This document shows positions 6,601-51,345 of a stretch of DNA of 61,103 bases, one piece after another; position 1 is the first letter of the stretch, and each line of letters starts with the position of its first letter. The notes beneath the pieces are model-generated. The model saw nothing but the letters and a program-made list of their open reading frames with translations, made no database searches and was not told where the DNA came from. Both the position numbers and the translations under genes were made by a program. This DNA comes from an uncultured Polyangiaceae bacterium (lineage in GTDB: Bacteria; Myxococcota_A; Polyangia; Polyangiales; Houyiibacteriaceae): positions 1 through 61,103 of the forward strand of contig CAXMRN010000228.1 in the NCBI GenBank assembly GCA_964195565.1, written 5' to 3'.

Positions 6601-7510
6601 CGCTGACGAAGCGCGCCTGTGGCGTGATCGGTTGGCAGGTCCGGTACGGGTTGGCGAACGCGCCGTCTACCTGCGCACCGAGGGGTCGACCGTCCAGGGT
6701 CAAAGCGGGGTACTTGGCCTGCGCGGCAAGCGACTTGTCTGGCGGGGGCGGACGCCAATCGGGATTGTACCTGTACTTGTTCGCGCACACGAGCGCGAGC
6801 CACGCGGCGACCGCCTCTTCGGGCCGCCCCATCTCGTTGAGGGTGTACCCGATCAGATAGTAGACCCCGTCGGAGCGTTCGTAGGCAGGGAACCGCCGCG
6901 CGAGGGTCTTGTAGAGAGTGACCGTCGGTGTGAAGTCGGGCGACGTGGGGAGGCTGTCCTCGGCCGTGAGGTCGCCGGCCTCCCGGGCGGCTTGCGCATC
7001 GTCGTAGAGATTCTGAAAGTCGACGGCGCTTCGTTCGAAGTAGAGTTCGCCCAAACGAAACATCGCGTCCGGAGTGTACTTGGTGTGGTCGGGGTACCGG
7101 CGGATGAAGTCTTCGAAAACTCGAATCGAATTTTCACGAGCCTCGTCGAAGGCGCGCTCTTCAGTTTCGAGCCGCTCGCCATACCACCGGTCGCGCTCGC
7201 GCCGTTGCTGGAGATACTCGCGCCGCACCAATGACGTGACCGTCGAGCGGAAGGCTTCGCCCGTCTCAGTGAACCGGTCGACCTCCTCTTCGAGCTGTCG
7301 CAACGCTTCGAGTTGTTGGGCGGTAGGGGGCGGCCTCTGGTCGACGATACGCTTGTCGGTGTCCTGAAGGAACGGCGGCAGCGTCACGTCGGTCGCCCCC
7401 TCCCACGGCGCAGCCTCAGCTTCCTGCGCCGCCACGGGAACCGAGGAGCCCGACGCCGCGAAGCAGATCGCGAGCAACACCAGGGAGACGACCTTGCGAC
7501 CTGGGCTCAT
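3680..7510 (-). CDS. gltD: GltD/AgmU-like large exported TPR protein
   Basis: Signal peptide and 1276 aa of TPR repeats (DAMFRLGELY, WFRVGEYHFD, ALYKVAWAYY); 4-nt overlaps with both neighbours. Confidence 0.7.
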   Translation of the reverse strand: MSPGRKVVSLVLLAICFAASGSSVPVAAQEAEAAPWEGATDVTLPPFLQDTDKRIVDQRPPPTAQQLEALRQLEEEVDRFTETGEAFRSTVTSLVRREYLQQRRERDRWYGERLETEERAFDEARENSIRVFEDFIRRYPDHTKYTPDAMFRLGELYFERSAVDFQNLYDDAQAAREAGDLTAEDSLPTSPDFTPTVTLYKTLARRFPAYERSDGVYYLIGYTLNEMGRPEEAVAAWLALVCANKYRYNPDWRPPPPDKSLAAQAKYPALTLDGRPLGAQVDGAFANPYRTCQPITPQARFVSETWFRVGEYHFDDFGGQSSLDLSIAAYGRILENPDDRNYNLALYKVAWAYYRASRYPEAIHHFGRLVQWSDDARSKTGKAGSELRPEAIDYLGIAFAYDDWNENQVSDPIEGQPTGLERVQDGSLIPQQRLWTPEVYFQLGQVYFDEAKYLEAIAAWRLAISKWPNHHRTPEVLNDIAVAHQMHNEFENAILARSELTEYVQGSPWWNANMDHPAEQRNAEQLAENALIVTAVHHHHRAQRLRQQCVEERNVKLCRDSRVEYQLAASAYRGYLERYPNNPQGYELHYNLADALYWSRNYEQAATEYAEVRDSNVGDSYLAESARRVVESLNRIADRDVEEGRLLIRDEPPAPAGAPPSIHPVAMPETVQRLARAREIYLTRVPSNRDTEGVRAAYDYNNALLLYRYGFWPQADARFTRIYEERCSGPEADATGQIAWENLRAMAIATDDSEEIRRLATDIQERGCTFSARADKIDCTRPSNRDKPICRAGADLNALVYQDALDVYKRAGQATGTEQRLLYEQSATMLLAAVNSNPGDRQAPLALEYAALALEATNRFESAGQLYQRIIDEVGPRRAEDAEEQQSLDAILANAHFKLAYTASRNFDFDRAVENYRVLADSTRFAKSADSEVQSKRADGLVNSAILLEQLQRYPEATQYYRRVYDTVGDPETKRNALYRIAEMAYKQERYPQAIAGMRAFIKVYGNDGEAGELVVRAYWSIAQSWKARGRTGDYRMALQEVTASYERTGQPPGSIAAGYAAEARFILIDGKLSGFEKFQVKPGKPKTVEAYIKTITKQIGAGGTQAQSIANGYETVFPYRRPRWMIASYVRQGRAYEILARSILNTPVVMPLDLKKVLRQAGPDEREEYELDFDDKVRQVLDTKVRPVECFAVVRYALAARASRAGSFDDRYTRIAIDRLQAYGDERIAECIAEAHAHDATFQGYVPGEFARSPRGKPLEIRPGIAPPAITERNE

Positions 7511-11469: not shown

Positions 11470-12418
11470 GGAATGCAAAGAGCAGGTCTTCGAACTGATC
11501 GAACGCGAGGCGGTCGACCGGGACGGAGTGCACGAGGTGCTCTCTCGGTGCCCTGAGTGCCGTGCGGCTTTCGAGGAAATGAAGGCGGCGCTGATGCTGG
11601 CCGAGCAGTTGCCGATCGAACCGCCGCCGGCCGAGATCGATGCGGTGGTTCTTCGTGCCGCCCGTGCCAAGGCCACCAAGGTGCTTCCGCTGAGGAAGCG
11701 TCGCCTGCAGCCGCCACCTTGGGCCATGGCGGCGATCGCGATGCTGGCGGTCGGGGTCGGGGTTTGGTCGATCCCGCGGGAGATCCGGTTTGAGGGGGAT
11801 CTCGCGCCGGCTGACGATGCGCCGGTCGGACGTGACGGGTCTGACCGGAAGGTCGCGGAGGAAGAGTTCCTGGCGGAGCAGACGCTCGCGGACGACGAAG
11901 ATGAGTTTGCCGGCAAGTTGGCCGCGACCGAGTCGCCGGCCGAAGTGAATGCGCCCGCAGCCGCCTTGGAACGCGGCGAATCCGGCCCCGAGAAGAGCGC
12001 GCCAAGACGCGCACGCGAGAACCGGAGGTCGAGGGCATCGATCGACGAAGAGCGCGTCGGGGGAGCGGCTCAGGCTCCCGCTTCGATTGCAGTCGCCGAC
12101 ATGCAAGGGCTCAACGCGGAGGAATCACAGAGTCGTGAAGTGACCGCCAAGGCGTCGGCTCCCGAGAAGAAGGAGGGAGACGCACCCGTCGACTTGGCCT
12201 CCGCATGCAAGCGCAAGATCGCCGACATCGAGCGAAGCGCGCGTGCCAACGACGACCACGAGCCCGCGCCCGCGCCCGAGGAAGAACTCGAAATCGGGCT
12301 GTGTTACCAGCGGCTGAAGAACGTGGTTGAGGCTCGCAAGTGGCTCGAGCGCGCGGCAGCTCACCGGAAGACCAAGGCACGTGCCGAGAAGGCGCTCCGA
12401 ACACTAGCGCCCGAGTAG
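11459..12418 (+). CDS. Zinc-binding transmembrane anti-sigma factor
   Basis: Overlaps the ECF stop; N-terminal CEEC...CPEC, one TM (WAMAAIAMLAVGVGVW), a disordered linker and a C-terminal TPR-like helix pair. Confidence 0.85.
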   Translation: MNCEECKEQVFELIEREAVDRDGVHEVLSRCPECRAAFEEMKAALMLAEQLPIEPPPAEIDAVVLRAARAKATKVLPLRKRRLQPPPWAMAAIAMLAVGVGVWSIPREIRFEGDLAPADDAPVGRDGSDRKVAEEEFLAEQTLADDEDEFAGKLAATESPAEVNAPAAALERGESGPEKSAPRRARENRRSRASIDEERVGGAAQAPASIAVADMQGLNAEESQSREVTAKASAPEKKEGDAPVDLASACKRKIADIERSARANDDHEPAPAPEEELEIGLCYQRLKNVVEARKWLERAAAHRKTKARAEKALRTLAPE

Positions 12419-12429
12419 CACGGGGCGTG

Positions 12430-13248
12430 TCATCGGCGGAGCCAGTCGAGGAGTGCGCGCCACTTTGGCCTTTTCGAGACGCTCGCGCGTGCAGCCATGT
12501 CCCGGGCTGCGGCGAGGGCACGATCGAGGTCGGCGGCGATCTGCAACGTGTCAAGTAGGATGCGTGCATCGTCTGCGGCTGCTTTCCAGCGGGAGTCGAC
12601 GCCGCTGAAGAAGCACGCCCCGCCGAGCATCCTGGTGATCTCGTCCGCGGCGAAGATCGCGGTCGCTCGTTCCCGGTTGGGTTCGCCGAGCTGCGTCAGG
12701 TCGACGACCGCAAGCTCGACGTCGGCGTTGAGCATGGCGCGCCCGAGAGCATCGACACACTCGGTCAGCACCTCCGGCTCATGCACTCCCGACACGATCA
12801 ACGCGAACACCTCGTCATCGATGCGTAGCGGCCGCAGAGATTTGGCCGCGCGCGCTTCCGCGACCTGCGCGATTCGTTCCTCGCGCCCGAGGACGAACCC
12901 TTCCATCGCCGCCGCAACGGCGCGCTGCGAAAACTCTTCCAGGGACTCCTTCTCATCGAGGCCATCGATGGAGCGAAGCGCGAGCAGAACCGCTTGAATC
13001 GCCGATGTGGGTGTGAGGTCGAGCAGAGCGAGGCGACGACCAAGTAGGCTCAGCACCGCAAAGCACTCGCGGAAACCGAACGACTCGTAGTCCCCATTGG
13101 CACGCTCATCCCGAGGCAGCTCGCTCAACAGCGGTAGGAGCGGTGAGACTTCCGCAGCGAGGTCCGCGTACGGGACCCCTCCCGTTGCTGGCCTTGCGTC
13201 TTCGAGGAAGGCCTCGAAGCGATCTACGGCGGACTCCCCATCGCTCAC
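12430..13248 (-). CDS. Hypothetical protein with a degenerate C-terminal STAS (RsbR-like) domain
   Basis: The C-terminal pattern FALIVSG...AVVDLTQL...RMLGGACFFSGV parallels the RsbR STAS fold. Confidence 0.55.
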   Translation of the reverse strand: MSDGESAVDRFEAFLEDARPATGGVPYADLAAEVSPLLPLLSELPRDERANGDYESFGFRECFAVLSLLGRRLALLDLTPTSAIQAVLLALRSIDGLDEKESLEEFSQRAVAAAMEGFVLGREERIAQVAEARAAKSLRPLRIDDEVFALIVSGVHEPEVLTECVDALGRAMLNADVELAVVDLTQLGEPNRERATAIFAADEITRMLGGACFFSGVDSRWKAAADDARILLDTLQIAADLDRALAAARDMAARASVSKRPKWRALLDWLRR

Positions 13249-13310
13249 AATCCCCCGACTCTATCACTCTTTGGGTGGGCGATAATCCGCCGTGATATAA
13301 GCGGCGTTGC

Positions 13311-14708
13311 ATGGCTGCCACAATTCTCGTCGTCGACGATGAAAAGAACATCCGGCGAACCTTGCGGATGGTGCTCGAGGGTTCTGGGTTTAACACCCTC
13401 GAGGCGTCCTCAGCGGAAGAGTGCCTCGAGACGTTGGGCGGTCAGGAGGTCGACCTCCTCATCCTCGACGTTCGCCTTCCGAAGATGAGCGGCATCGAAG
13501 CGCTGGAAAAGATCCGCAGCAAACCGGAGACGCGAAGGCTCCCGGTGCTGATGGTCTCCGGCCACGCGTCGGTCGCCGAGGCGGTTCAGGCCGTGCAGCT
13601 CGGGGCGACCGATTTTTTCGAGAAGCCGCTCGATCGGGACCGCATTCTGGTCACCGTTCGCAACGCACTACAGACCTGGCAGCTCCAACGCGAGGTCGAG
13701 CAGCTGCGCGCCGATGTCGAGCACCGGTACGAGATGATCGGCGAGAGCCCTGTCCTACGCTCGCTCTTCGCCCAGCTCGAGAAAGTCGCCCCGACGAACG
13801 GGCGTGTGCTCATCTCCGGGGAGAGCGGGACCGGCAAGGAGCTGATCGCCCGCGCGATTCATCGACTCAGCCCGCGCGCGGAGCAGCCCTTCGTCAAAGT
13901 GAACTGCGCGGCAATCCCGGCCGAGCTGATCGAGAGCGAGCTATTCGGTTACGAGCGCGGCGCATTCACCGGCGCGCAGGGCCGCAAGAAGGGCATGTTC
14001 GAGCTCGCCAACGCCGGTACGCTGTTTCTCGACGAGATTGGCGACATGAGCGCGAGCGCGCAGGCCAAGGTGCTGCGCGCGCTTCAGAGCGGGGAGATCT
14101 CTCGCGTCGGTGGCGAAAAGCCGATCGCTGTCGACGTCCGTGTGTTGGCCGCGACCAACAAGGACTTGGAGCTCGAGGTCAAGGACGGGCGTTTTCGCGA
14201 GGATCTCTATTTTCGCCTCAATGTCGTCCCTATCGTGAGTCCCCCACTCCGGGAGCGTAAGTCCGACATCCTCTTGTTGGCCAAAGGCTTTCTCCAAGAG
14301 TTTTCGGTCGAGAACGGGTTGCGCGAAAAGCCGATCGACGAAGAGGTCCTCGAGGCGCTCGCGGAGCGACCGTGGCCTGGGAACGTGCGGGAGCTCCGGA
14401 ACGTCGTGGAGCGGATGGCGATCTTGAGCGGCGACCGGATCACCCTCGACGATCTGCCCGAGGAAGGGGTGCTCAGCGAGGTTCGACGCGAGTCTGCCCC
14501 CCCTTCGGACGTGCCCTCGACCCTCGACGATGCCGGCGAACGCCTGACTTTGCGGGAGTATCGGACCCGCGCGGAGAAGGACTACATCCTGCGGACACTC
14601 GACGAGGTGGCGTGGAACATTTCTCGGGCCGCGACGATTCTTGGCGTGGAGCGCACCAACCTTCACAAGAAAATGCGGAGCTATGGTATCCGTCGGGAAG
14701 ACGTATGA
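13311..14708 (+). CDS. Sigma54-dependent response regulator (NtrC/NtrX family)
   Basis: REC domain (ILVVDDE, LDVRLP), Walker [31 protein letters not shown] and a Fis-type HTH. Confidence 0.95.
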   Translation: MAATILVVDDEKNIRRTLRMVLEGSGFNTLEASSAEECLETLGGQEVDLLILDVRLPKMSGIEALEKIRSKPETRRLPVLMVSGHASVAEAVQAVQLGATDFFEKPLDRDRILVTVRNALQTWQLQREVEQLRADVEHRYEMIGESPVLRSLFAQLEKVAPTNGRVLISGESGTGKELIARAIHRLSPRAEQPFVKVNCAAIPAELIESELFGYERGAFTGAQGRKKGMFELANAGTLFLDEIGDMSASAQAKVLRALQSGEISRVGGEKPIAVDVRVLAATNKDLELEVKDGRFREDLYFRLNVVPIVSPPLRERKSDILLLAKGFLQEFSVENGLREKPIDEEVLEALAERPWPGNVRELRNVVERMAILSGDRITLDDLPEEGVLSEVRRESAPPSDVPSTLDDAGERLTLREYRTRAEKDYILRTLDEVAWNISRAATILGVERTNLHKKMRSYGIRREDV

Positions 14709-41718: not shown

Positions 41719-42153
41719 ATGGGTGCTGAAACCAATGATGTCTGGCCGAGCGGGATGCCGAGGGTTGGTCAGCGTGCGGAACGAACGCGGGCTGTCCAAG
41801 CACGCGACATCGAGTTGTTCACAGAGATCTCCGGCGACCGCAATCCGCTTCACTACGACGAGGAACTAGCGAAGGCCACGCGGTTTGGGGGAATCGTGGT
41901 TCAGGGTGGCATCACGAGCGCCATTCTCAACGCCGTCGTCGCGGAGGATCTGCCAGGCCCCGGAACCGTGTTCTTGCACGTCGACTGGAGCTTCAAGGCG
42001 CCGGTGCGGCCCGGGGATGAGATCACGGGCAGGGTCGAAGTCCTCGAAGTGAGGACCGACAAGCCGATTACGAAGCTCAAGACCGAGGTCGTGCGCGAGG
42101 ACGGGACCGTCGTGCTGGAGGGCGAGGTGCTCTGCTACACGATGCCGCTTTAG
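41719..42153 (+). CDS. MaoC-family dehydratase
   Basis: SGDRNPLHYD, LPGPG and FKAPVRPGD. Confidence 0.9.
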   Translation: MGAETNDVWPSGMPRVGQRAERTRAVQARDIELFTEISGDRNPLHYDEELAKATRFGGIVVQGGITSAILNAVVAEDLPGPGTVFLHVDWSFKAPVRPGDEITGRVEVLEVRTDKPITKLKTEVVREDGTVVLEGEVLCYTMPL

Positions 42154-44549
42154 TGCTGATGCTGGTCGAGGACTTTTTTCGACAGCGGACGCAGCAGCAA
42201 CCCGTAGAACATCTCCAGATACCGCCGCGTCTCGTCGCGCTCGAGCGATGAGATGTAGCGCCAGAAGCCGTAGATCCGGGACAGCTTGAGGAGGGTCGAG
42301 GCATAGAGCTTCCAGTTGTATCGCTCGTCGACGCGCGCGATGCCGCCCCTGGAGATCGAATCCCAGGTGTTCGGGTCTTTCTCACAAGCCCGGAAGAATT
42401 CGAGCAGCTTCTGACTCGTCGCGGCGCCCTGATTGGGGTCGATGTGGAAGCCAGATAGGCCATCCTCGATGATCTCGAGGGGGCCGCCGTAGCGAGTTGC
42501 GAAGGTCGGTAGGCCACTGCTCATCGATTCGATGACGGTGAGGCCAAACGCTTCGAAGAGCGCGGGCTGCACGAAGGCGCCCCGCTGGTCGGCGACGAAG
42601 CGGTAGAGCCCCCCCACCTTGTTCTTGTCGGTCTGCATCTCGACCCAGCGGACGCTGCCCTCGAGATCGTATTGGTCAAAGAGCGAGTGCGTGCGCTCGA
42701 TTTGCTCCCGCTCGTCGCGGTCGCCGGACTCTTCGGCACGCAGTCGGCCCCCGACGATGAGTAGGTTGGCGGCGTTTCGGAGCTCGTCGTTCTGCGCGTA
42801 CCACTCGACCAAGCCGGCCATGTTCTTGATTCTGTCTAGCCGCGACATGGAGAACAGCAGTGGCTTGTCTTGGTCTTTCATGGACCCCCGAAAGGCGCAG
42901 TCCGGTGATCCGTACACCATCGTCTCGATCTCCGCGCGGAGCTCTTCGGGGCGACGCCCCTCATCGAAGTATGGGAAGAAGACGCGCGTATCGGCGCCCG
43001 GCGAGACGACGTTGAACTTTGGGTCGAAACAGTCGATCCCGGAGACGACGCGGTACAGACGGGGCAGGGTGAACGAGCTGTAGCTCTCGTACTGTCCAAC
43101 ACTCTCCGCAGTCCCGGCGATTTCCTGATAGGTGCTGGTGATGATGAAGTCGGCCGTGTTCATCGCCATGAGGTCGGCGGTGTACTGCGCGGCAAAGTGA
43201 TGCTCTGCTTCGTGGTCCTGCCAGTACACATCCGACAACAGATACTTCGTCTTCTCGAGGGCGTGGGCGATATTGCACTGCGTGACCCCAAGTCGATGCG
43301 CCATGATACTGGCGACGAGATTGCCGTCGGAATAGTTCCCAATGACGAAGTCGGGCGTCATGCCAGCGAGCTCCGCGAGAAGCTCGCGCTCCGCGTCGAC
43401 GGCGTAGCGTTCCAAATACGGCCACACCTCGAATCGTGAGATCCACTGCGGAATGACCTCGCCTGTTTCGTAGGTGCGGAAAGGCACACGGAGGATGCGC
43501 GCGTTCTCCGTCCCGAGGATCGGCTCGATGCGCTGATCGCAAGTCGTCCCGTCTGCTTCCGGGATCAATCGCGTGAGCACCACGATCTGTGGGGCGATGT
43601 CGAGTCCTTGCTCGTGGATCGACTGCCGCATCTCACGCTCGAGGGCGCGAACCTGGTCCAGGATGTAGACGACTTGCCCGCCGGTGTCGGGCTTGCCGAG
43701 GACGTTCGATTGTCCGAAATAGCCGTGCGGCGAAAGAATGGCGATTGAAAAGATCATCGGCATGCGCGCGAGAAAGCTCTCGAGGTTCGCCGCAGACGGG
43801 GCTTCGAGGATGTCGCGCAGGAGCCCCATCGTCTCGTTGATGCGCGCTGGCGTTCGTCCCCAGCCCGCCTCGAAACCTAGCCTCCGGAGCTGGCGCGTGA
43901 GGCCGGAGCTCTCCGTCGAATGCTCTTCGAGCAGTTTCATCGCGCGGTCCAGGGCTTCGCGAAGCTCTTCGGTGTCGTGCAGCGTCCCGTTCAACATCAG
44001 CTGTTGACCGCGAACCTGGTGCACCTGCAAGAAGTCGAAGAGGAGAGTCTCCCCGCGACCGCCGTCCATGAAGAGCCGTCCGGACAGATGACGGTTGAGG
44101 AACTCGACGCCGCGTCCGATGCTCCGGGAATCTTTGAGCTTGGGGAAGCCTCGCTCGAACGGGCTCAGGTCGACCTCGAGCACATAGCGATCGCCCTTGG
44201 GGAGCCCTGCCGCGACGCGTTCCTTGACGTCCAAGAACTCCGCCACGGTGAGCTCTCTGCAGTGCATCTCCTCGGTGTGTACTTGTACGAACTGCCAGCG
44301 CCCCACGCGCGTCCGAACCGCGAGGCTGACGAACGGCTCGTCGATGGCGGCCTCCTGCGCATGCCGCATGATCGACGACAACTCCGTCTCGAGAAGGGGC
44401 GCACCCACTGTCGACTCGCAGAACTGTTCGTACTCGTGGACCAAGTCCGACCACAGGAGGAACTTCCGATCCAACGCCTTGAGGCGCCTGAACAGAAGGT
44501 AAATCGGTTCGCGATGGGCCTGGAGCAACGCTTCGAGCTCTTGAATCAT
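42150..44549 (-). CDS. susA: Sucrose synthase (GT4)
   Basis: 799 aa; SIGRGVEFLNRHLS, SPHGYFGQ, PDTGGQVVYILDQVRALE, GNYSDGN, HALEKTKY, RLDRIKN and EAFGLTV. Confidence 0.96.
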   Translation of the reverse strand: MIQELEALLQAHREPIYLLFRRLKALDRKFLLWSDLVHEYEQFCESTVGAPLLETELSSIMRHAQEAAIDEPFVSLAVRTRVGRWQFVQVHTEEMHCRELTVAEFLDVKERVAAGLPKGDRYVLEVDLSPFERGFPKLKDSRSIGRGVEFLNRHLSGRLFMDGGRGETLLFDFLQVHQVRGQQLMLNGTLHDTEELREALDRAMKLLEEHSTESSGLTRQLRRLGFEAGWGRTPARINETMGLLRDILEAPSAANLESFLARMPMIFSIAILSPHGYFGQSNVLGKPDTGGQVVYILDQVRALEREMRQSIHEQGLDIAPQIVVLTRLIPEADGTTCDQRIEPILGTENARILRVPFRTYETGEVIPQWISRFEVWPYLERYAVDAERELLAELAGMTPDFVIGNYSDGNLVASIMAHRLGVTQCNIAHALEKTKYLLSDVYWQDHEAEHHFAAQYTADLMAMNTADFIITSTYQEIAGTAESVGQYESYSSFTLPRLYRVVSGIDCFDPKFNVVSPGADTRVFFPYFDEGRRPEELRAEIETMVYGSPDCAFRGSMKDQDKPLLFSMSRLDRIKNMAGLVEWYAQNDELRNAANLLIVGGRLRAEESGDRDEREQIERTHSLFDQYDLEGSVRWVEMQTDKNKVGGLYRFVADQRGAFVQPALFEAFGLTVIESMSSGLPTFATRYGGPLEIIEDGLSGFHIDPNQGAATSQKLLEFFRACEKDPNTWDSISRGGIARVDERYNWKLYASTLLKLSRIYGFWRYISSLERDETRRYLEMFYGLLLRPLSKKVLDQHQH

Positions 44550-47500
44550 TCGTGGTCCTCTGTTGGGACCCGAATGTCCCCTAAGAAATCATAGTGATCG
44601 ATGCCCTCGAGGATACCTCGGGCGTGTGGATTTTCCGCAAAGTGCACGCGTGGCCGTCCGCGCAGTCGTTCGAGCTCCGGCGTGTGGTTGCTCACCACGA
44701 CACCCAACGTGTCTCCTGAAAGCATGTCCCAGTCGTTCCCGGAATCGCCTGCCACGAGCAAGCGCTGCGGCTCCAGGTTCCATTTGAAACAGAAAAACCG
44801 AATCGCAAGCCCCGGTGACGCGCGGACCGGAATCACATCGAGGTAGACCTCGTGGTCGAGGATGGTCGTCACTCGGAGGCCCTCTTGGCGAACGAGGCGC
44901 CGGATTTCACGGAGACTGGGGGCCTGCTTTGGGTCGAGGCGATATCGAAGACGGTACTTGGTTTCGGATTTGGCCACTCGGCTCAGGCCGGGAATCGCGC
45001 CGACGACGCGATGCACCTCGTCGCGGTTCCATCGGTAGCGGATTTGCCGCTCCCAGGATCGGTCAGGCAGCAGGCGGGTGCCGTAGTGGAGCTCGGTCCC
45101 CGCCGCAGTGATGAGAAGGTCGGGCACCCTCACCTCGAGCTCCTTCATGAGGTCGAGAGATTCGTTCAGATTTCGTCCGGTAGCGATGCCAAAGCCGACT
45201 TTGGCGTCGGTCGTTTCGAGTTTCTGCAGCAGGATCGCCAAGGCTTCGTCGTCGCCGGTGAGCGTGTCATCGACGTCGGTCACGAGTACCCGGTCGATGC
45301 CTGCGAGTTTGCTCCGGAGCCGATGGACCGGCTGCGTGCCCCTCACGATTTTGCGGACCTCCTGCACGTAGCGGGCCGCGTGGCTATCCCAGGAGTAGTT
45401 CGCGTGTGCAGCGGCGAGGCCCGCCTTGGACCAACGGCTCCAACGCGCCGAGTCACTCAGAGCGTCCCGAATCGCTTCGCCGATCGCGTTTGAATCGAGG
45501 GCGTCGACCAGGAGTCCGTTGTTACAGGCGCCGATGATGTCCTGCGGACCCCCGTCGTCTGTGGCCACGACCGGGAGCCCCGTAGCGGCAGCCTCGAGCA
45601 GCGTCAGTCCGAACGGTTCGGTTAGCGCAGGATTGACGAACAAGCCCCTCGTCTGTGCCGCCAACTTGTAGAGATCGGGCACGTCGGTCGAGTCGTGATG
45701 CTTCGGGTATGCCGCCGAGCCGTAGAGGTCGTAGCGGTCGATCAACCCCAGAATGTTCCTGAGGACGCGGCGTTGACCAGCACTCATCTCCGCGATGTCG
45801 TCGCGGTTTCCCGCGACGATGATCAGGTTGGCCAGCTCACGGAGCCCGTCGGTCTCGCCAAATGCGCGCACCAGGCCTTCGAAGTTCTTTCGCTCGTCTG
45901 CTCTGGCCAACGCGAGGACCATCGGCTTGCGCGGATCGGCCAAAAAGCGGTCGAGCTCGCCGGCGATGCGCGGGCGTGACCACCCCGACTCTGGAGGAGA
46001 GAAACGCGACAGGTCAACGCCCGGCGGAATCACCTGCATGCGGTCGGGCTGGTAGTGGTCGTAGAGCTCATACTGCTCGCTAACCTCTTGGCGAGTACTG
46101 GCGATGACCAAGGCGGCCGTCTCGACGGCCCGTTCCTCGGCTTCGATTCGCTGTGTGAACCGGTACGTTTGCTCACTGGCTTCGCCCCGGGATTCGAGCC
46201 GCAGCTTTTTGACCCGGCCGAGCGAGTGGCCCGTGAAGACGAATGGCACACCGAGCAGCTTTGCGAGCTGAGCGCCAAGATAGCCCGCGTCTGCGTAGTG
46301 ACCATGGATCACGTCGGGGGTTCGCTCTTGCATCCGTACGTAGCGCGTGAGCTGATCCAGGAGGCTGTCGAGATGGGGCCAGAGGGTCTCTTTGCGGAGA
46401 TAACGGCGGGGGCCAAATGGAATGCGGACGATCTGCGCGCCCTTGCAGATCGGTTCGAACGGTCGTGAGTAGCTGTCGTCGACCCTTCGGTCCTCGATGA
46501 GTCGCGTCACGACGTCAACTCGTTCGACGTCAGGGTGTTGGGCGAGCGCCCTGGCCTGGTCCACCACGTACGAAACCTGGCCCCCTGTGTCGGCGTCCCG
46601 TCCAAGCTCGATATCGGTCGCGCGCACCAAACCGTGGATGGTGAGCGACAGGACGTAGAGGCCCTCGGAGCCAGGCGCACTGATCGACCCGGCGCTCGTG
46701 TCTTCGGACCAGGTGGCTAGGTGCCGCTCATACAGGGCGAAGTCGGGGGTGGTCGCACCACGGACCGCGCACAAGTCCGCCGCGAATCGGGCCGCGCGGT
46801 CGAGGGTCGTCTGGTGGTCCCAATCGTGAAGCAATCCGAGGCACACGACGGCGCTGAACGCGTCGCCCGCTCCCACTGTATCGACGATGTCGGTGACCGG
46901 CGCAGCCGCTGCTTCAAAGACCCGCTTGCCGTCCACGATCGATAGCGCGCCCCGTGAACCCCGAGTCACAATCACGCCGTCGATCGAGTGGTCACTCGCC
47001 AGCCGGAGTGCCGCGTCTCTGCATTCTTCGAATGTGCGCGTCGGCCGGCCGGAAAGATCCGCGAGCTCGTTGTCGTTGAGCTTGATCCAGTCTGCGGTCG
47101 ATAAGCACCAATCGACTTTTTCTTTCGTCCACCAGGGATCGCGAAGGTTGAGGTCGACGAACGTCGGGGCATCGGCCTTGTCCCTCAACGCGCGCAACGT
47201 ATTCCAGCTATCAGCGGCGCGAAGGGCGAGCGTCCCGTGGTAGAGGAGGCCGGCCGGCTTCTCCGACGCGGCCCGAACGGCATGGTCGCGGTGGATGAAG
47301 TCCCACGCCTGGGCCGGCGCGATCTCGAAGTGGTTCTCGCCGCCGACGACCGTTGCGGTGACTCTTCCCGTCGGATGGGTGGCGTCGGTCTGCACGCCGT
47401 CCGTCATCAGATCCCAGCTGGTCATCCGCTCGAGGACCTCGCGACCGTCGGCGTCTTCTCCCACCGCACTGACCACCAGGGGATTCGCCCCGAAGCCCCG

Positions 47501-47611
47501 CAGATGCCAAGCGACATTGAACGGCGCGCCACCCAACACACGACTCCCGTCGACGAAGTGGTCGAAGAGAACCTCGCCAAAAATGACAGGGCGATTGTGG
47601 AAACGGTGCAC
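44546..47611 (-). CDS. Triple fusion: PfkB fructokinase + sucrose-phosphate synthase (GT4) + HAD-IIB sucrose-phosphatase domain
   Basis: PfkB: GEVLFD, GGAPFNVA, DLNLR, DTVGAGDAF. SPS: HGLVR...ELGRDADTGGQ, HGHYADAG, TGHSLGRVK, EPFGLTLLEA. HAD: TDVDDTL, ATGR, GDSGND. One frame with no internal stop. Confidence 0.93.
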   Translation of the reverse strand: MHRFHNRPVIFGEVLFDHFVDGSRVLGGAPFNVAWHLRGFGANPLVVSAVGEDADGREVLERMTSWDLMTDGVQTDATHPTGRVTATVVGGENHFEIAPAQAWDFIHRDHAVRAASEKPAGLLYHGTLALRAADSWNTLRALRDKADAPTFVDLNLRDPWWTKEKVDWCLSTADWIKLNDNELADLSGRPTRTFEECRDAALRLASDHSIDGVIVTRGSRGALSIVDGKRVFEAAAAPVTDIVDTVGAGDAFSAVVCLGLLHDWDHQTTLDRAARFAADLCAVRGATTPDFALYERHLATWSEDTSAGSISAPGSEGLYVLSLTIHGLVRATDIELGRDADTGGQVSYVVDQARALAQHPDVERVDVVTRLIEDRRVDDSYSRPFEPICKGAQIVRIPFGPRRYLRKETLWPHLDSLLDQLTRYVRMQERTPDVIHGHYADAGYLGAQLAKLLGVPFVFTGHSLGRVKKLRLESRGEASEQTYRFTQRIEAEERAVETAALVIASTRQEVSEQYELYDHYQPDRMQVIPPGVDLSRFSPPESGWSRPRIAGELDRFLADPRKPMVLALARADERKNFEGLVRAFGETDGLRELANLIIVAGNRDDIAEMSAGQRRVLRNILGLIDRYDLYGSAAYPKHHDSTDVPDLYKLAAQTRGLFVNPALTEPFGLTLLEAAATGLPVVATDDGGPQDIIGACNNGLLVDALDSNAIGEAIRDALSDSARWSRWSKAGLAAAHANYSWDSHAARYVQEVRKIVRGTQPVHRLRSKLAGIDRVLVTDVDDTLTGDDEALAILLQKLETTDAKVGFGIATGRNLNESLDLMKELEVRVPDLLITAAGTELHYGTRLLPDRSWERQIRYRWNRDEVHRVVGAIPGLSRVAKSETKYRLRYRLDPKQAPSLREIRRLVRQEGLRVTTILDHEVYLDVIPVRASPGLAIRFFCFKWNLEPQRLLVAGDSGNDWDMLSGDTLGVVVSNHTPELERLRGRPRVHFAENPHARGILEGIDHYDFLGDIRVPTEDHE

Positions 47612-47630
47612 GGCTTCTTACCTGACGCCT

Positions 47631-47644
47631 TCCTGCGTGCAGGA
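47631..47644. promoter_or_regulatory. Dyad TCCTGC-GT-GCAGGA between the divergent sps and spp genes (possible operator)
   Basis: Perfect 6-bp arms inside the 63-nt intergenic gap. Confidence 0.35.
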
Positions 47645-47674
47645 GGGTTCGGTCCTCGCTAAGCTCACGTCCGG

Positions 47675-48478
47675 ATGAGCATACCACGTTCCCTACTCGC
47701 GTCAGATCTCGATGGCACGTTGATTCCGTTGGAACGTGGCGCGCAACATTTGCGTGGCGTCGCGGAGCTGGTCGCTGCGTTCGAAGCAAACGAGGAGCTC
47801 CTGCTTGCGTACGTGACGGGCCGCCATCTTGCGCTCGCGAAGGCTGGCATCGCAGCCATCGGCCTGCCTTCACCGGACTGGTTCATCTGCGACGTCGGTA
47901 CGAGCGCGTACCGACGGACAAACCGAGGCTTCGAGGCCGATATGGAGTATCGCCGAGCGATGCGGGACGCGCTTGGGGGGCTTGGCGGCGACGACGTTCG
48001 AGCCGCAGTTGGAACAATCGAGGGGCTCGAACTTCAAGAGGATGAGAAGCAGGCGGAGTTCAAGGTGAGCTATTACACCCGAGGCCGGCCGGAGCCGTTT
48101 GTCGACACTGTGCAGTCGCGGCTCGACGTTGCTGAGGCGAAAGTGAATCTCGTAGCGAGCCATGATCCCGTGTCCGGGCGCGGGCTGCTCGATGTCCTCC
48201 CCGCGGGTATCGCAAAGGATTACGCGATCCGATACCTCCAGGAGCATTCAGGCGTGGACGAGGCGCTTCTCGTGTACGCCGGAGACTCCGGAAACGACCG
48301 CGCCGCCCTACTCAGCGGGTATCAAGCCATCGTCGTGGGCAACGCAGACGAGGCACTCAAAGCCGAACTGGCCGCCGATGCCGCCGCACAGGGCATCGCA
48401 GACCGGGTCTACTTCTCCGAACATCCATACGCCCGCGGCGTCCTGGAAGGCCTTCGACACTTTGAAATGGTGAAGTAG
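47675..48478 (+). CDS. Sucrose-phosphate phosphatase-like HAD-IIB hydrolase
   Basis: LLASDLDGTL, YVTGRH, DVGT, KVSYY, LDVLP...K and GDSGND; adjacent to sps and sus. Confidence 0.88.
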   Translation: MSIPRSLLASDLDGTLIPLERGAQHLRGVAELVAAFEANEELLLAYVTGRHLALAKAGIAAIGLPSPDWFICDVGTSAYRRTNRGFEADMEYRRAMRDALGGLGGDDVRAAVGTIEGLELQEDEKQAEFKVSYYTRGRPEPFVDTVQSRLDVAEAKVNLVASHDPVSGRGLLDVLPAGIAKDYAIRYLQEHSGVDEALLVYAGDSGNDRAALLSGYQAIVVGNADEALKAELAADAAAQGIADRVYFSEHPYARGVLEGLRHFEMVK

Positions 48479-48490
48479 GGATCCGGGGCG

Positions 48491-48633
48491 GAGGCCGGGG
48501 CACGGGGGAACGCGACACGCGGATATGACGAACGGGGCGCCTTGCGTGGCCCACGCCCCCAGTTCTTCCGGCCACCTTTGCAAGGCGCCCCGTCCGCAGA
48601 AACCGCGTATGGCGTTTCGCTGTGCCCCGGCTC
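48491..48633. repeat. Long imperfect inverted repeat (about 140 nt) between convergent spp and polA
   Basis: Nested arms GCCGGGGCAC/GTGCCCCGGC, ACGCGG/CCGCGT, ACGGGGCGCCTTGC/GCAAGGCGCCCCGT and GTGGCC/GGCCAC. Confidence 0.85.
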
Positions 48634-48639
48634 TTGCGT

Positions 48640-51345
48640 CTAGTGTGCCGCGCCCCAGTTGGGGCCCCAGCCTATGTCGACGGGCAACGGTACCGATAGG
48701 GGTACTGCGTTTTGCATGTGGTCGACGACGAGCTTCTCGAGCGCTTGGCGTTCGTCGGGCGGTGATTCGAAGACGAGCTCGTCGTGCACTGTCAGTACCA
48801 TGCGGCTCTGCAGCTTCTGCTTCTCGAGGTCGTGTTGAATCTGGACCATGGCGACCTTCATGATATCCGCCGCTGTGCCTTGAATCGGGGTGTTGCGCGC
48901 GATGCGTTCGGCGGCGGCTCGGAGGTTGTGGTTCGTGCTTCGGATGTCGGCGAGCGAACGGCGTCGGCCCAGCAGAGTCGTGACTAGGCCATTGGCGCCG
49001 GCCTGTTCGACCACTTCGTCGAGGAACGCTTTGACGCCGGCGTACTGGTCGAAGAAGGCGTCGATGTAGCGTTTGGCTTCCTTGCGCTCGATCTTGAGGT
49101 TGCGAGCGAGAGCGAAACCGGTTTGTCCGTAGATGACCGCGAAATTCACCGTCTTGGCTTGGCCCCGCATGCTCTTGGTGACTTCCTCGGGCTGGACCCC
49201 GAAGAGCGCGCAGGCAGTCTGGACGTGGACGTCGTCTCCACGAGAGAAGGCGTCGACCAGGGCCGGGTCCCGGCTGAGGTGGGCGAGCACCCTGAGCTCG
49301 ATTTGCGAGTAGTCGGCTGCGAGCATCGACCAGCCCTCCGCCGGCACGAAGGCATCGCGCACCCGCCGGCCCATCTCGGTGCGGATCGGGATGTTCTGGA
49401 GGTTCGGGTCGCTCGAGGAGAGCCGTCCGGTGGCGGTGACGAGTTGGTTATAGCGGGTGTGGATCCGCCCGGTGTCGGGATTTATCTCTCGCGGTAAAGC
49501 GTCTAAATACGTGCTCTTGAGCTTGGAAACCGAGCGGTATTCGAGGATCGCCTGTGGGAGCGGGTGAAGCAGTGCGAGCTCTTCGAGAACCCCGTGGTCG
49601 GTCGAACGCGCGGTCTTGGTCTTCTTGACGACCGGCAGGTCGAGCTCGTCGAAGAGGATGGTCTCGAGTTGCCGCGGCGAGGACACATTGAACTCGTGGC
49701 CGGCGAGCTCGGTGCATAGTGTGCGGAGTCTTTCGAGCTCCGCCGTCGCCTCGACGGAGAGTTCCTCGAGGGGCTGTGTGGCGACCCTGATGCCGTTGAG
49801 CTCCATCGTGGCCAGGACGCCTGCGAGGGGAAGCTCGACGTCGTAGAACAAGCGTTCGAACTCCCCTTCGTGCATCCGTGGGGTCAGCAGTTCGCTCAAC
49901 CGAAAGGTGAAGTCCGCGCGCTCGTTGGCGAAGTCCGCGACGGGGCCGACCTCGACCTCGTCCCAGGTCAGCGCCTTCTTGCCCTTCCCGCGGACGAGCT
50001 CCTCTTCGCTCAAGTCGCCGTCCAGCTCGTGGCGCGCCACGTCCTGAAGCCGATGGGCATGCCGAGACGGGTCGAGCAGGTAGCTCGCGAGTGACGGGTC
50101 GAAACGAACCCCCCGCAGCGTCACGCCTCGCCGCGCCCAGAACACGGCCTCGCGTTTGGCCAGTGCAAGTTTGGGGATGAGTGAGTTCTCGAGGAGTGGG
50201 GTCAGGACGGGCCCGGCTTCTTCCCAGCTCAGATGGTCCGGTGCACCGATGTAGCGGTGATCGAGCGGAATGTACGCGCTGACGCCTTCCACCCAGCTTA
50301 CCGCCACCCCAACGAGTTCGGCGCGGATGGGATCGTCAATGTCCATCACGGAATACAACGAAAAGCCGTTGGTTTCGCGGATGGCTCGGGCGACTCGGGC
50401 CAGATCCTCGGCGGTCGTGATGGTTTCGTAGTGCCCCTCGACGACGGCTGCGGCCTCGTCCGGCGAAGCCGGTTCGAGTTGGGCGAGCAGGCGGGTGAGC
50501 TCGAGCTCACTGAAGATCGCCCGGAGGGCGCTGGTGCTGCCACCGGTGAACGGGCGGGTGACCGCAGCCGGATCGATCTCGACGTCAGTCCGAAGGGTCA
50601 CGAGCTCCCGGGAAGTGAGCGCGTCGTCGCGATGGTCAGTCAGCTTCGCCTTGAGCGCCTTGCGTGTGATGTTGTCGAGGTTCTCGTAGATGCCCTCGAA
50701 CGTCCCATACTCTTCCAGTAGCTTGGCGGCGGTCTTCTGCCCGACCGAGGGAACGCCGGGCACGTTGTCAGAGCTGTCGCCCATCAGCGCGAGCAGGTCA
50801 CGCACCTGCCCTGGGTCCACGCCGAGCTTCTCGCGCGTCTCCTCGGCGCCGAACACCTTGTTGCGCATGGTGTCGTACATGACGACATCCGGCCCGACGA
50901 GCTGGAGGAGATCCTTGTCGGCGCTCACGATCACGACCCGGAGCCCCTTGTCACGCGCCTGGCCCACCAGGGTGGCGATGATGTCGTCCGCCTCGAACCC
51001 GGGCGCCTCGATCGGCGACATGCCCCAGGCCTCGACCACCTCTCGGACGCGACTCATCTGCTGTTGCAGATCGGGCGGCGCGGGGGGGCGGTTCGCTTTG
51101 TAGGCTTCAAACAGCTCCTTGCGGAAGGACCGTTGCTTGGAGTCCATCGCCACGATGAGCCCGTGAGGCTCGTGCTCCCGCAACAACTTGTGCAACATGG
51201 CCGCGACCCCGGCCACGGCGTGGGTTGGCTCGCCTTTGCTGCTCGAAAGCGGTGGAAGCGCGTGATACGCACGGAACACGTAGGAGCTGATGTCGATCAC
51301 GTAGATCGTCTCGGGATCCCCCTTGTTGGGCAGCTTCTCCACCAT
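48640..51345 (-). CDS. polA: DNA polymerase I
   Basis: 5'-3' exonuclease (YKANR, EADDIIAT, GDSSDNVPGV) and polymerase motifs (TGRLSSSDPNLQNIP, DYSQIELR, K.VNF..IYG, VHDE). Confidence 0.98.
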   Translation of the reverse strand: MVEKLPNKGDPETIYVIDISSYVFRAYHALPPLSSSKGEPTHAVAGVAAMLHKLLREHEPHGLIVAMDSKQRSFRKELFEAYKANRPPAPPDLQQQMSRVREVVEAWGMSPIEAPGFEADDIIATLVGQARDKGLRVVIVSADKDLLQLVGPDVVMYDTMRNKVFGAEETREKLGVDPGQVRDLLALMGDSSDNVPGVPSVGQKTAAKLLEEYGTFEGIYENLDNITRKALKAKLTDHRDDALTSRELVTLRTDVEIDPAAVTRPFTGGSTSALRAIFSELELTRLLAQLEPASPDEAAAVVEGHYETITTAEDLARVARAIRETNGFSLYSVMDIDDPIRAELVGVAVSWVEGVSAYIPLDHRYIGAPDHLSWEEAGPVLTPLLENSLIPKLALAKREAVFWARRGVTLRGVRFDPSLASYLLDPSRHAHRLQDVARHELDGDLSEEELVRGKGKKALTWDEVEVGPVADFANERADFTFRLSELLTPRMHEGEFERLFYDVELPLAGVLATMELNGIRVATQPLEELSVEATAELERLRTLCTELAGHEFNVSSPRQLETILFDELDLPVVKKTKTARSTDHGVLEELALLHPLPQAILEYRSVSKLKSTYLDALPREINPDTGRIHTRYNQLVTATGRLSSSDPNLQNIPIRTEMGRRVRDAFVPAEGWSMLAADYSQIELRVLAHLSRDPALVDAFSRGDDVHVQTACALFGVQPEEVTKSMRGQAKTVNFAVIYGQTGFALARNLKIERKEAKRYIDAFFDQYAGVKAFLDEVVEQAGANGLVTTLLGRRRSLADIRSTNHNLRAAAERIARNTPIQGTAADIMKVAMVQIQHDLEKQKLQSRMVLTVHDELVFESPPDERQALEKLVVDHMQNAVPLSVPLPVDIGWGPNWGAAH

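Follow-up and report, generated by a model that had tools for sequence, protein, structure and literature searches.

Our study identified a sucrose gene cluster in the window, the entire 61,103 nt contig CAXMRN010000228.1 of a metagenome-assembled genome (MAG; GCA_964195565.1) from an uncultured Polyangiaceae bacterium of the phylum Myxococcota. The cluster comprises a sucrose synthase (SuS) gene (42150–44549, minus strand), a triple-fusion gene in which a PfkB sugar kinase, a sucrose-phosphate synthase (SPS) and a sucrose-phosphate phosphatase (SPP)-like domain share one reading frame (44546–47611, minus strand), and a divergently transcribed, stand-alone SPP gene (47675–48478, plus strand). 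Together, these three genes are likely to provide a self-contained unit for the synthesis and recycling of sucrose, a reading in which the enzyme activities and the physiological role are deduced from gene content. The encoded enzymes are themselves ordinary, and the locus is a real but modestly new form of the frk-sps-sus clusters known from bacteria. Three features appear to set it apart: the in-frame fusion of the kinase, the identity of the residue missing from the SPP-like domain, and the divergent placement of the SPP gene.

The SuS gene begins with ATG and was identified from the open reading frame (ORF) listing and a profile search. Its 799 aa product is, by profile, a full-length sucrose synthase (EC 2.4.1.13), scoring 1130.7 bits against the TIGR02470 equivalog (cut-off 810.4) over profile positions 4–782 of 784 and carrying N-terminal SUS_N (PF24861, 95 bits) and EPBD (PF24862, 80 bits) domains followed by both GT-B halves (PF00862, 483 bits; PF00534, 78 bits). 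It matched the SuS of Nitrosomonas europaea (4rbn) with 971 bits over residues 4–793 and SUS1 of Arabidopsis (3s27) with 873 bits. The fusion gene begins with GTG and encodes 1021 aa, and homologues of 1010–1027 aa aligned across 99–100 % of its length. Three parts were resolved within the predicted protein: a kinase domain at residues 1–300 (46712–47611; PF00294, 137 bits over residues 23–289), an SPS glycosyltransferase domain of family GT4 at residues 318–756 (45344–46660; TIGR02472, 659.9 bits over residues 318–752, cut-off 576) and an SPP-like domain at residues 775–1009 (44585–45289; TIGR02471, 284.7 bits, cut-off 209.75). With the SPS domain and the C-terminal SPP-like domain both above their cut-offs, the fusion has the architecture of a bidomain SPS, in which a glycosyltransferase domain is followed by a phosphohydrolase domain (GTD-PHD). 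The stand-alone SPP gene begins with ATG and encodes 267 aa matching PF05116 (S6PP, HAD-IIB) with 173.1 bits (cut-off 20.3). The profile-match scores for the cluster genes are too large to be explained by chance.

The kinase part of the fusion is probably a fructokinase, the specificity for fructose being suggested by gene context. Its best solved match was the fructokinase 2qhp (92 bits), with a ribokinase reaching 65 bits, and a GG dipeptide (LGGAPF) and a DTVGAGD motif were found without variation in all 12 sequences compared. Two scores weigh against such specific naming. The kinase reached 64 bits against the NCBI fructokinase equivalog NF006957, for which the cut-off is 450, and the stand-alone SPP scored 86.8 bits against the plant and cyanobacterial SPP equivalog TIGR01485, below the cut-off of 183.65; because of the latter, we refer to this protein as a member of the S6PP family and not as the curated equivalog.

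The product of the pathway could in principle be a different sugar. Mannosylfructose phosphate is made in Agrobacterium, and the SPS-like and SPP-like genes might produce this or another fructose-containing disaccharide phosphate instead of sucrose, a reading that would accommodate both the naming of TIGR02472 as a ‘putative’ SPS domain by NCBI and the low equivalog score of the stand-alone phosphatase. However, the SPS domain exceeds its cut-off and finds its best solved match in a characterized SPS, that of Halothermothrix orenii (2r60, 210 bits). In addition, the SPS gene overlaps, and co-evolves with, that of a SuS scoring well above its own equivalog cut-off. We consider the production of another disaccharide very improbable.

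The genes are tightly linked. The fusion and SuS genes share an ATGA overlap at 44546–44549 (minus strand), seen on reading the sequence, in which the TGA stop codon of the fusion overlaps the ATG start codon of SuS, and a Shine–Dalgarno-like GAGGA lies 6 nt upstream of this ATG. The end of the fusion and the start of SuS coincide in every Myxococcota-clade locus where both genes were mapped. The start codons of the fusion and the stand-alone SPP lie on opposite strands with 63 nt between them. Kinase, SPS and SuS thus follow one another, adjacent and on one strand, in the order that defines a frk-sps-sus cluster, and the same order was seen in loci of Gammaproteobacteria, Gemmatimonadota and Acidobacteriota. 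No second copy of any cluster gene was found in the window's genome (G000). The gene identities, the translational coupling and the divergent stand-alone SPP put forward in the original prediction, which had been made from the sequence alone, were all recovered by the ORFs, the profiles and the reading of the sequence.

Two SPP-related domains and a missing lysine

Of the two SPP-related domains that the cluster encodes, the one in the fusion probably does not work as a phosphatase. It retains haloacid dehalogenase (HAD) motifs I (DVDDT), II (TGR) and IV (GDSGND), all invariant in 12 of 12 fusions, while motif III reads RASPG where the SPP of Synechocystis (1s2o) has RSNKG. Alignment to 1s2o puts Pro933 (codon 44813–44815, minus strand; translation checked) in place of the motif III lysine, K163, so that the four intact HAD motifs expected in the PHD of a bifunctional SPS/SPP are not all present. 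The stand-alone SPP has every HAD motif intact, with D11, D13, T15, G49, R50, K181 (codon 48215–48217, plus strand) and G203–D208 (GDSGND) invariant in 37 of 37 orthologues. These motifs align to D9, D11, K163 and D186–D190 of 1s2o, in a numbering counted from the alignment.

The loss of the lysine was found to accompany the presence of a neighbouring SPP gene. Motif III was readable in 74 of 80 fetched loci, and 45 loci had adequate flanks. The lysine was kept in 25 loci, none of which had a neighbouring SPP (0 of 15 with good flanks), and it was lost in 49 loci, including all those of Myxococcota, 42 of which had a neighbouring SPP (29 of 30 with good flanks). The residue in its place was proline in 29 loci, serine in 11, cysteine in seven, and leucine and alanine in one each, and this variation suggests that the position is no longer constrained. 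The exception was locus L008, from genome G004, where the divergent SPP has been lost and ~330 bp separate polA from the fusion; this genome has an S6PP-family gene elsewhere (G004:C4:602730–603527). As lysine loss and a neighbouring SPP go together across loci, we propose, at a moderate level of confidence, that dephosphorylation is probably carried out by the stand-alone SPP and, with similar confidence, that the fused domain serves some other purpose, for example in binding, docking or regulation.

Several observations weigh against this division of labour. The split between loci with and without the lysine falls on a single deep branch in the SPS phylogeny (support 91), and the association therefore amounts to approximately one evolutionary event rather than 74. 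Mean column identity across the same 37 loci was also higher in the fused domain (68 %) than in the stand-alone SPP (56 %), and an AlphaFold model of the fused domain was confident (mean predicted local distance difference test score 92.9), with 1s2o as its best structural match (template modelling score 0.83). This degree of conservation and the confident model argue that the fused domain is not decaying; it would therefore have some function, and it might still hydrolyse its substrate.

These observations also bear on the possibility that the fusion is a trifunctional enzyme with kinase, SPS and active phosphatase, the stand-alone S6PP-family protein being either redundant or directed at another sugar phosphate. 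Besides its conservation, its three retained motifs and the structural match to a genuine SPP, the fused domain is closer to the Synechocystis SPP (111 bits) than the stand-alone protein is (54 bits), and enzymes with both SPS and SPP activity are known, for example in Synechococcus elongatus PCC 7942, as described in parts of PMC4390843 and PMC6753628. However, the motif III lysine is missing from all 49 members of the subfamily, with a variable replacement, a motif-complete SPP accompanies 29 of 30 such loci compared to 0 of 15 that keep the lysine, and even the genome that has lost the neighbouring SPP keeps one at a distance. An active phosphatase within the fusion is, in our judgement, unlikely.

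A more elaborate version of the proposed division of labour can be drawn. The lysine-less domain may act as a pseudo-phosphatase, binding sucrose-6-phosphate and offering a docking site to the stand-alone SPP, such that kinase, SPS, pseudo-SPP and SPP would form one assembly running a closed fructose loop with the coupled SuS; the loop could double as a converter of UDP-glucose to ADP-glucose in a genus in which GlgC was detected in none of 55 genomes. This scheme is speculative, and we regard it as quite unlikely to hold in full.

Comparison with known systems helps to place the arrangement. The locus of Nitrosomonas europaea was reportedly presented by Wu and others in 2015 as a proteobacterial sucrose cluster of frk, sps (with an SPP-like part) and sus. 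Gammaproteobacterial clusters of this type in our set (L043, L045, L053 and L066) resemble the window in having a kinase, an SPS with a C-terminal SPP-like domain and SuS on one strand, tightly packed or overlapping. They differ in that the kinase of the window is fused in frame to SPS, motif III of its SPP-like domain has no lysine and there is a divergent stand-alone SPP gene upstream. Across the 17 Pseudomonadota loci, the lysine was kept and no neighbouring SPP was found in the DNA examined.

The proposed division of labour is the same as that of Synechocystis, where passages of Kolman et al. (2015; PMC4390843) and Kirsch et al. (2019; PMC6753628) describe an SPS with an inactive phosphohydrolase domain alongside a separate SPP. 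The residues involved are different: the cyanobacterial loci L060 and L063 have D to E in motif I and D to A in motif IV and keep the lysine that the window has lost. Neither of these loci has a kinase fusion, unlike the window, and cyanobacterial sucrose genes are, according to the same passages, mostly scattered, whereas those of the window are clustered. The SPS/SPP of S. elongatus PCC 7942 has the same GTD-PHD order in one polypeptide; however, the portions of PMC4390843 and PMC6753628 that treat it report that the key catalytic residues are kept and that phosphatase activity is present, while the fused domain of the window has no motif III lysine and is accompanied by its own SPP.

Distribution and origin of the cluster

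The window represents a full contig of a 3.36 Mb MAG (243 contigs, 88.8 % complete, 0.22 % contaminated), and the cluster sits in mid-contig, with valS, a UbiA-family gene, ogt, an EamA gene and a MaoC gene on one side and polA and ffh on the other. The original prediction of a myxobacterial host agrees with the taxonomic labels. All 20 organism-named sequences among the 120 best ValS matches carried Myxococcota-lineage labels (Polyangiales, Myxococcales, Myxococcota, Deltaproteobacteria, Sandaracinus sp. and Polyangiaceae), down to 64 % identity, and the order ffh, polA, SPP, fusion, SuS, maoC/eamA/ogt was repeated in related genomes titled Myxococcales, Polyangiales, Sandaracinaceae or Deltaproteobacteria. 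On the other side of the balance, a 16S search of the MAG, at 88.8 % completeness, found none, and the Myxococcota assignment derives from the labels of submitters and from phylum grouping.

An artefact of binning or assembly, by which foreign DNA had been joined to a myxobacterial contig, would be conceivable for a MAG in 243 fragments with cluster genes whose closest relatives outside Myxococcota are from Gemmatimonadota. This candidate was rejected, and we consider its probability negligible. The cluster lies between valS and polA/ffh rather than at a contig end, and many related genomes have the same flanking genes, one of which (L006) is a closed 3.54 Mb chromosome. Contigs from other metagenome runs bridged both junctions, with two runs spanning maoC–SuS and one spanning fusion–SPP. 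Composition was also uniform, with a GC content of 0.62–0.68 in all 30 bins of the window and a GC content at third codon positions of 0.70–0.81 in the three cluster genes, compared to 0.74–0.83 in genes within ~10 kb on either side.

Within the phylum, the cluster was found to be largely the property of one genus. SuS scored above its cut-off in 18 of 401 sampled genomes, 17 of which belong to the genus of the window, in keeping with the earlier suggestion that such genes are unusual for myxobacteria. These were the window's own genome and 16 of 18 other members of the genus, against none of five other genera of the family and one of 377 genomes outside it. When all 55 genomes of the genus were considered, 44 had a SuS match at E≤1e-150 and 42 exceeded the curated cut-off, with SuS present in 32 of 39 high-quality genomes. 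Two members of the genus without SuS, G210 and G090, were also without SPS; the empty site reads valS, ubiA, ogt, eamA, a gap of ~190 bp and polA in the former, and polA, 1.3 kb and valS in the latter. These empty sites may reflect either loss of the cluster or its later gain in other members.

Beyond the phylum, the range was wider than anticipated. The original prediction had placed such gene sets chiefly in cyanobacteria, plants and certain proteobacteria, which understates the case, as at least 597 relatives in species genomes of many phyla were confirmed (597 of 599 candidate stretches among the matches listed), and the identical SPP/fusion/SuS layout is also found in Gemmatimonadota and Acidobacteriota. 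The PfkB family occurred together with SPS families in 119 of the 120 best protein clusters; in metagenome and other sequence collections the triple fusion is thus frequent. Full-text literature searches returned no description of SuS or SPS in Myxococcota or Gemmatimonadota, within a coverage that excludes key bacterial SuS papers and supplements, and none of a PfkB or fructokinase fusion to SPS, which is no proof of absence from print; the nearest matches only mentioned GT4 family activities or cyanobacterial MAGs.

Phylogenetic inference (LG+G4, with a root assumed among Pseudomonadota-type sequences) recovered the Myxococcota-clade sequences as monophyletic with support of 100 in both the SPS tree (75 rows) and the SuS tree (45 rows), and both trees placed this clade among Gemmatimonadota and two Acidobacteriota. 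In a concatenated tree of 43 rows and 1501 columns, the Myxococcota clade (100/100) lay inside a 22-row clade (100/99), the other members of which were exactly the kinase-fused loci of Gemmatimonadota and Acidobacteriota, with Gemmatimonadota that have a separate kinase gene or none branching outside. The SPS and SuS trees that the original prediction had proposed as a check thus positioned the genus within the diversity of Gemmatimonadota, next to other kinase-fused forms. An approximately unbiased (AU) test on the concatenated data rejected a tree in which Gemmatimonadota and Acidobacteriota were held together (p-AU 0.0046). This result is tempered by the single-gene tests, in which a sister position was not rejected for SPS (p=0.284) or SuS (p=0.12), and by the naming of the tested group only after the trees had been inspected.

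These data are best read as a single transfer, in which the cluster, with its fusion already formed, entered the ancestor of the genus or one of its early members; the direction of transfer is deduced from the trees. A single whole-cluster event is supported by the agreement of the phylogeny with the genus-restricted distribution and with a jump in identity among organism-named homologues of the fusion, which pass from Myxococcota labels at 72–85 % straight to Gemmatimonadota labels at 59–63 %, in contrast to ValS, for which named matches remain Myxococcota down to 64 %. The fusion of kinase and SPS would have arisen from genes that abut in frk-sps-sus clusters, a type common in bacteria. Separate frk and sps genes abut or overlap in L043 (6900/6881) and L039 (kinase end at 6897), and fusion through loss of the boundary would therefore be a simple step. 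This may have happened in the lineage now seen in Gemmatimonadota and Acidobacteriota, after which the whole block would have entered the ancestor of a single marine-sediment Myxococcota genus with small genomes (~3–5 Mb), to be inserted between polA and the eamA/ogt/valS block.

One locus of the phylum stands apart. L083 (G279:C1:16176–20489), from a Myxococcota genome of another family, has an unfused 855 aa SPS-SPP adjoining SuS, which keeps the motif III lysine (RASKG) and is closest, at 59 % identity, to gammaproteobacterial forms. This indicates that the sucrose genes of G279 may represent a second, independent acquisition within the phylum.

The content of the block also differs among Myxococcota-clade loci. 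In L006, a 705 aa GH31 alpha-glucosidase-like gene lies convergently and directly after SuS (11493–13610, minus strand), and the same position is occupied in nine further Myxococcota-clade loci (L003, L005, L007, L008, L011, L014, L015, L017 and L022), making ten in all. It is missing from L030 and from the window, where the SuS stop codon touches that of maoC, and G000 has a single GH31 gene, 26 % identical, on another contig. The gene could encode one more hydrolase belonging to the cluster, acting on sucrose or an alpha-glucoside, and would then have been lost by the species of the window.

The divergent spacer and a neighbouring repeat

The 63 nt intergenic region between the two divergent start codons (47612–47674) was compared by alignment between the window and 17 other Myxococcota-clade loci. 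The spacer was mostly 63–64 nt and contained a near-invariant TGAGCCTAGCGAGGAC block (in the orientation of the fusion strand) and a small CCTGC..GCAGG palindrome, while third positions of the adjoining codons varied. The block and palindrome are a candidate common operator or promoter element. A promoter scan of 41900–48800 found no match to the sigma-70 consensus, and three terminator-like sites were found in the same interval compared to 5.3 expected, a count that is uninformative.

On the far side of the SPP gene, the spacer between the SPP and polA stop codons (48479–48639) contains an inverted repeat, GGGGCGCCTTGC ... GCAAGGCGCCCC, with arms at ~48535–48546 and 48581–48592. The depth of metagenome contigs rose threefold over this spacer, with many loose ends, and the 12-mer arm was present in 19 copies on nine contigs of the MAG compared to ~2.5 expected. 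This looks like a dispersed repeat of the repetitive extragenic palindromic type.

Pathway and physiological role

The three genes would encode a closed cycle. The SPS domain would join NDP-glucose (where NDP is a nucleoside diphosphate) to fructose-6-phosphate, giving sucrose-6-phosphate, which the stand-alone, divergently transcribed SPP would dephosphorylate, the lysine-less fused domain probably not doing so. The translationally coupled SuS could then interconvert sucrose plus NDP and NDP-glucose plus fructose, and the kinase domain would phosphorylate the released fructose to fructose-6-phosphate, the acceptor for SPS. This recapture of fructose by the fused kinase, which had been suggested in the original prediction, is drawn from gene content. 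SuS is the only recognized sucrose-cleaving enzyme that we found, since no second copies were detected and no GH100 invertase was found in the 21 genus genomes examined, with GH32 and GH13 sucrose enzymes lying outside the search.

A comparable logic exists in the sps-spp-frk-ams operons of Synechococcus sp. PCC 7002 and halotolerant methanotrophs, as outlined in sections of a 2024 Chem Rev article (PMC11046441) and of PMC8062543. There too, sucrose synthesis genes stand beside a fructokinase that recovers fructose from sucrose breakdown, and these sections link sucrose in such organisms to salt response and carbon storage. The operons differ from the cluster of the window in that breakdown is by amylosucrase, which passes glucose into a glucan, rather than by SuS, which passes it into NDP-glucose, and in that all genes are described as separate rather than fused.

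Our preferred interpretation is that sucrose, next to trehalose, would be a compatible solute and would also buffer carbon over the short term. This is the most economical reading and is plausible from gene content and marine-sediment origin. Near-identical DNA (at least half of sampled words) was detected in 18 DNA runs from 11 studies, and 15 of these runs, from eight studies (seven without the study of the best holder, a possible source), were labelled marine sediment. The premise of the original prediction that model myxobacteria rely upon trehalose is consistent with the part of a preprint on M. xanthus that reports its accumulation (bioRxiv 10.1101/2023.05.19.541530). OtsA was present in five of five genus genomes tested, and sucrose would therefore be an addition to trehalose and not a replacement. 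For the marine myxobacteria Enhygromyxa and Plesiocystis, partial accounts name betaine, hydroxyectoine or amino acids as solutes.

Two considerations weigh against this interpretation. Operating together, the four activities would constitute an ATP-wasting loop, so some form of regulation must separate them. Transcription of the cluster genes is also hinted at rather than established: short contigs from two metatranscriptome libraries mapped to SuS (43739–43983), the fusion (45792–46052 and 47304–47559) and SPP (47880–48121), but such contigs, which were low in depth, fell equally on genes nearby and on an intergenic stretch, so that DNA carry-over is possible. The contigs covered 23 of 30 bins of the window in one library (X19) and 17 of 30 in the other (X20), the uncovered parts being uninformative.

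The supply of nucleotide sugars in this genus appears to be unusual. A UDP-sugar pyrophosphorylase family gene of eukaryote type (PF01704) was present in five of five genus genomes tested, GalU was found in none of the five and GlgC in none of 55. A GlgA-like gene was found in 51 of 55 (G000:C238:23473–24795 in the genome of the window), scoring 189–307 bits, below the family cut-off of 328. A GlgA-like gene without GlgC or GalU, in the presence of PF01704, points to an unusual route of nucleotide-sugar supply for glycogen, trehalose and sucrose.

This pattern could be taken to mean that the cluster mainly cleaves sucrose, supplying ADP-glucose to the glycogen-synthase-like enzyme in a genus without GlgC. 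In that case sucrose, whether imported or synthesized from UDP-glucose, would be an intermediate rather than an osmolyte. Alongside the missing GlgC and GalU, this would fit the link that passages of PMC4390843 make between bacterial and cyanobacterial SuS, ADP-glucose and polysaccharide synthesis. However, all 11 genus genomes without SuS keep the GlgA-like gene, which suggests that its donor is independent of SuS and weakens the case, and one genome with the cluster (G002) has no GlgA-like match. The GlgA-like scores themselves fall below the cut-off, and no sucrose transporter lies in the conserved block, the eamA gene remaining in place at the empty site of G210. We consider a primary role in ADP-glucose supply improbable, and retain the osmolyte and carbon-buffer interpretation.

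A swap of solutes, by which genomes would have either sucrose or glucosylglycerol or ectoine, was also examined and gave no clean pattern. GgpS was found in one of 55 genus genomes and EctC in four of 21, which included one genome with SuS (G411) and one without it (G418). The single GgpS-type gene is from G090, which has no sucrose cluster (L087:1050–3416, plus strand); it encodes a 788 aa fusion of an S6PP-like HAD phosphatase and a glucosylglycerol-phosphate synthase, scoring 673.5 bits against TIGR02398 (cut-off 569), that is, a compatible-solute enzyme of GgpPS type.

In summary, the cluster does not overturn current understanding of the sucrose pathway; rather, it would add sucrose to the protective sugars of Myxococcota and tie it to a single genus of marine sediment, abundant, uncultured and with small genomes, that may have gained the whole pathway in one step. 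It also offers two probable natural examples of protein evolution, namely the fusion of abutting kinase and synthase genes, and the loss of one residue from a catalytic domain after its task had passed to a separate enzyme. In biocatalysis, the cycling of sucrose and NDP-glucose might draw on the fusion and its coupled SuS as candidate parts within one operon.

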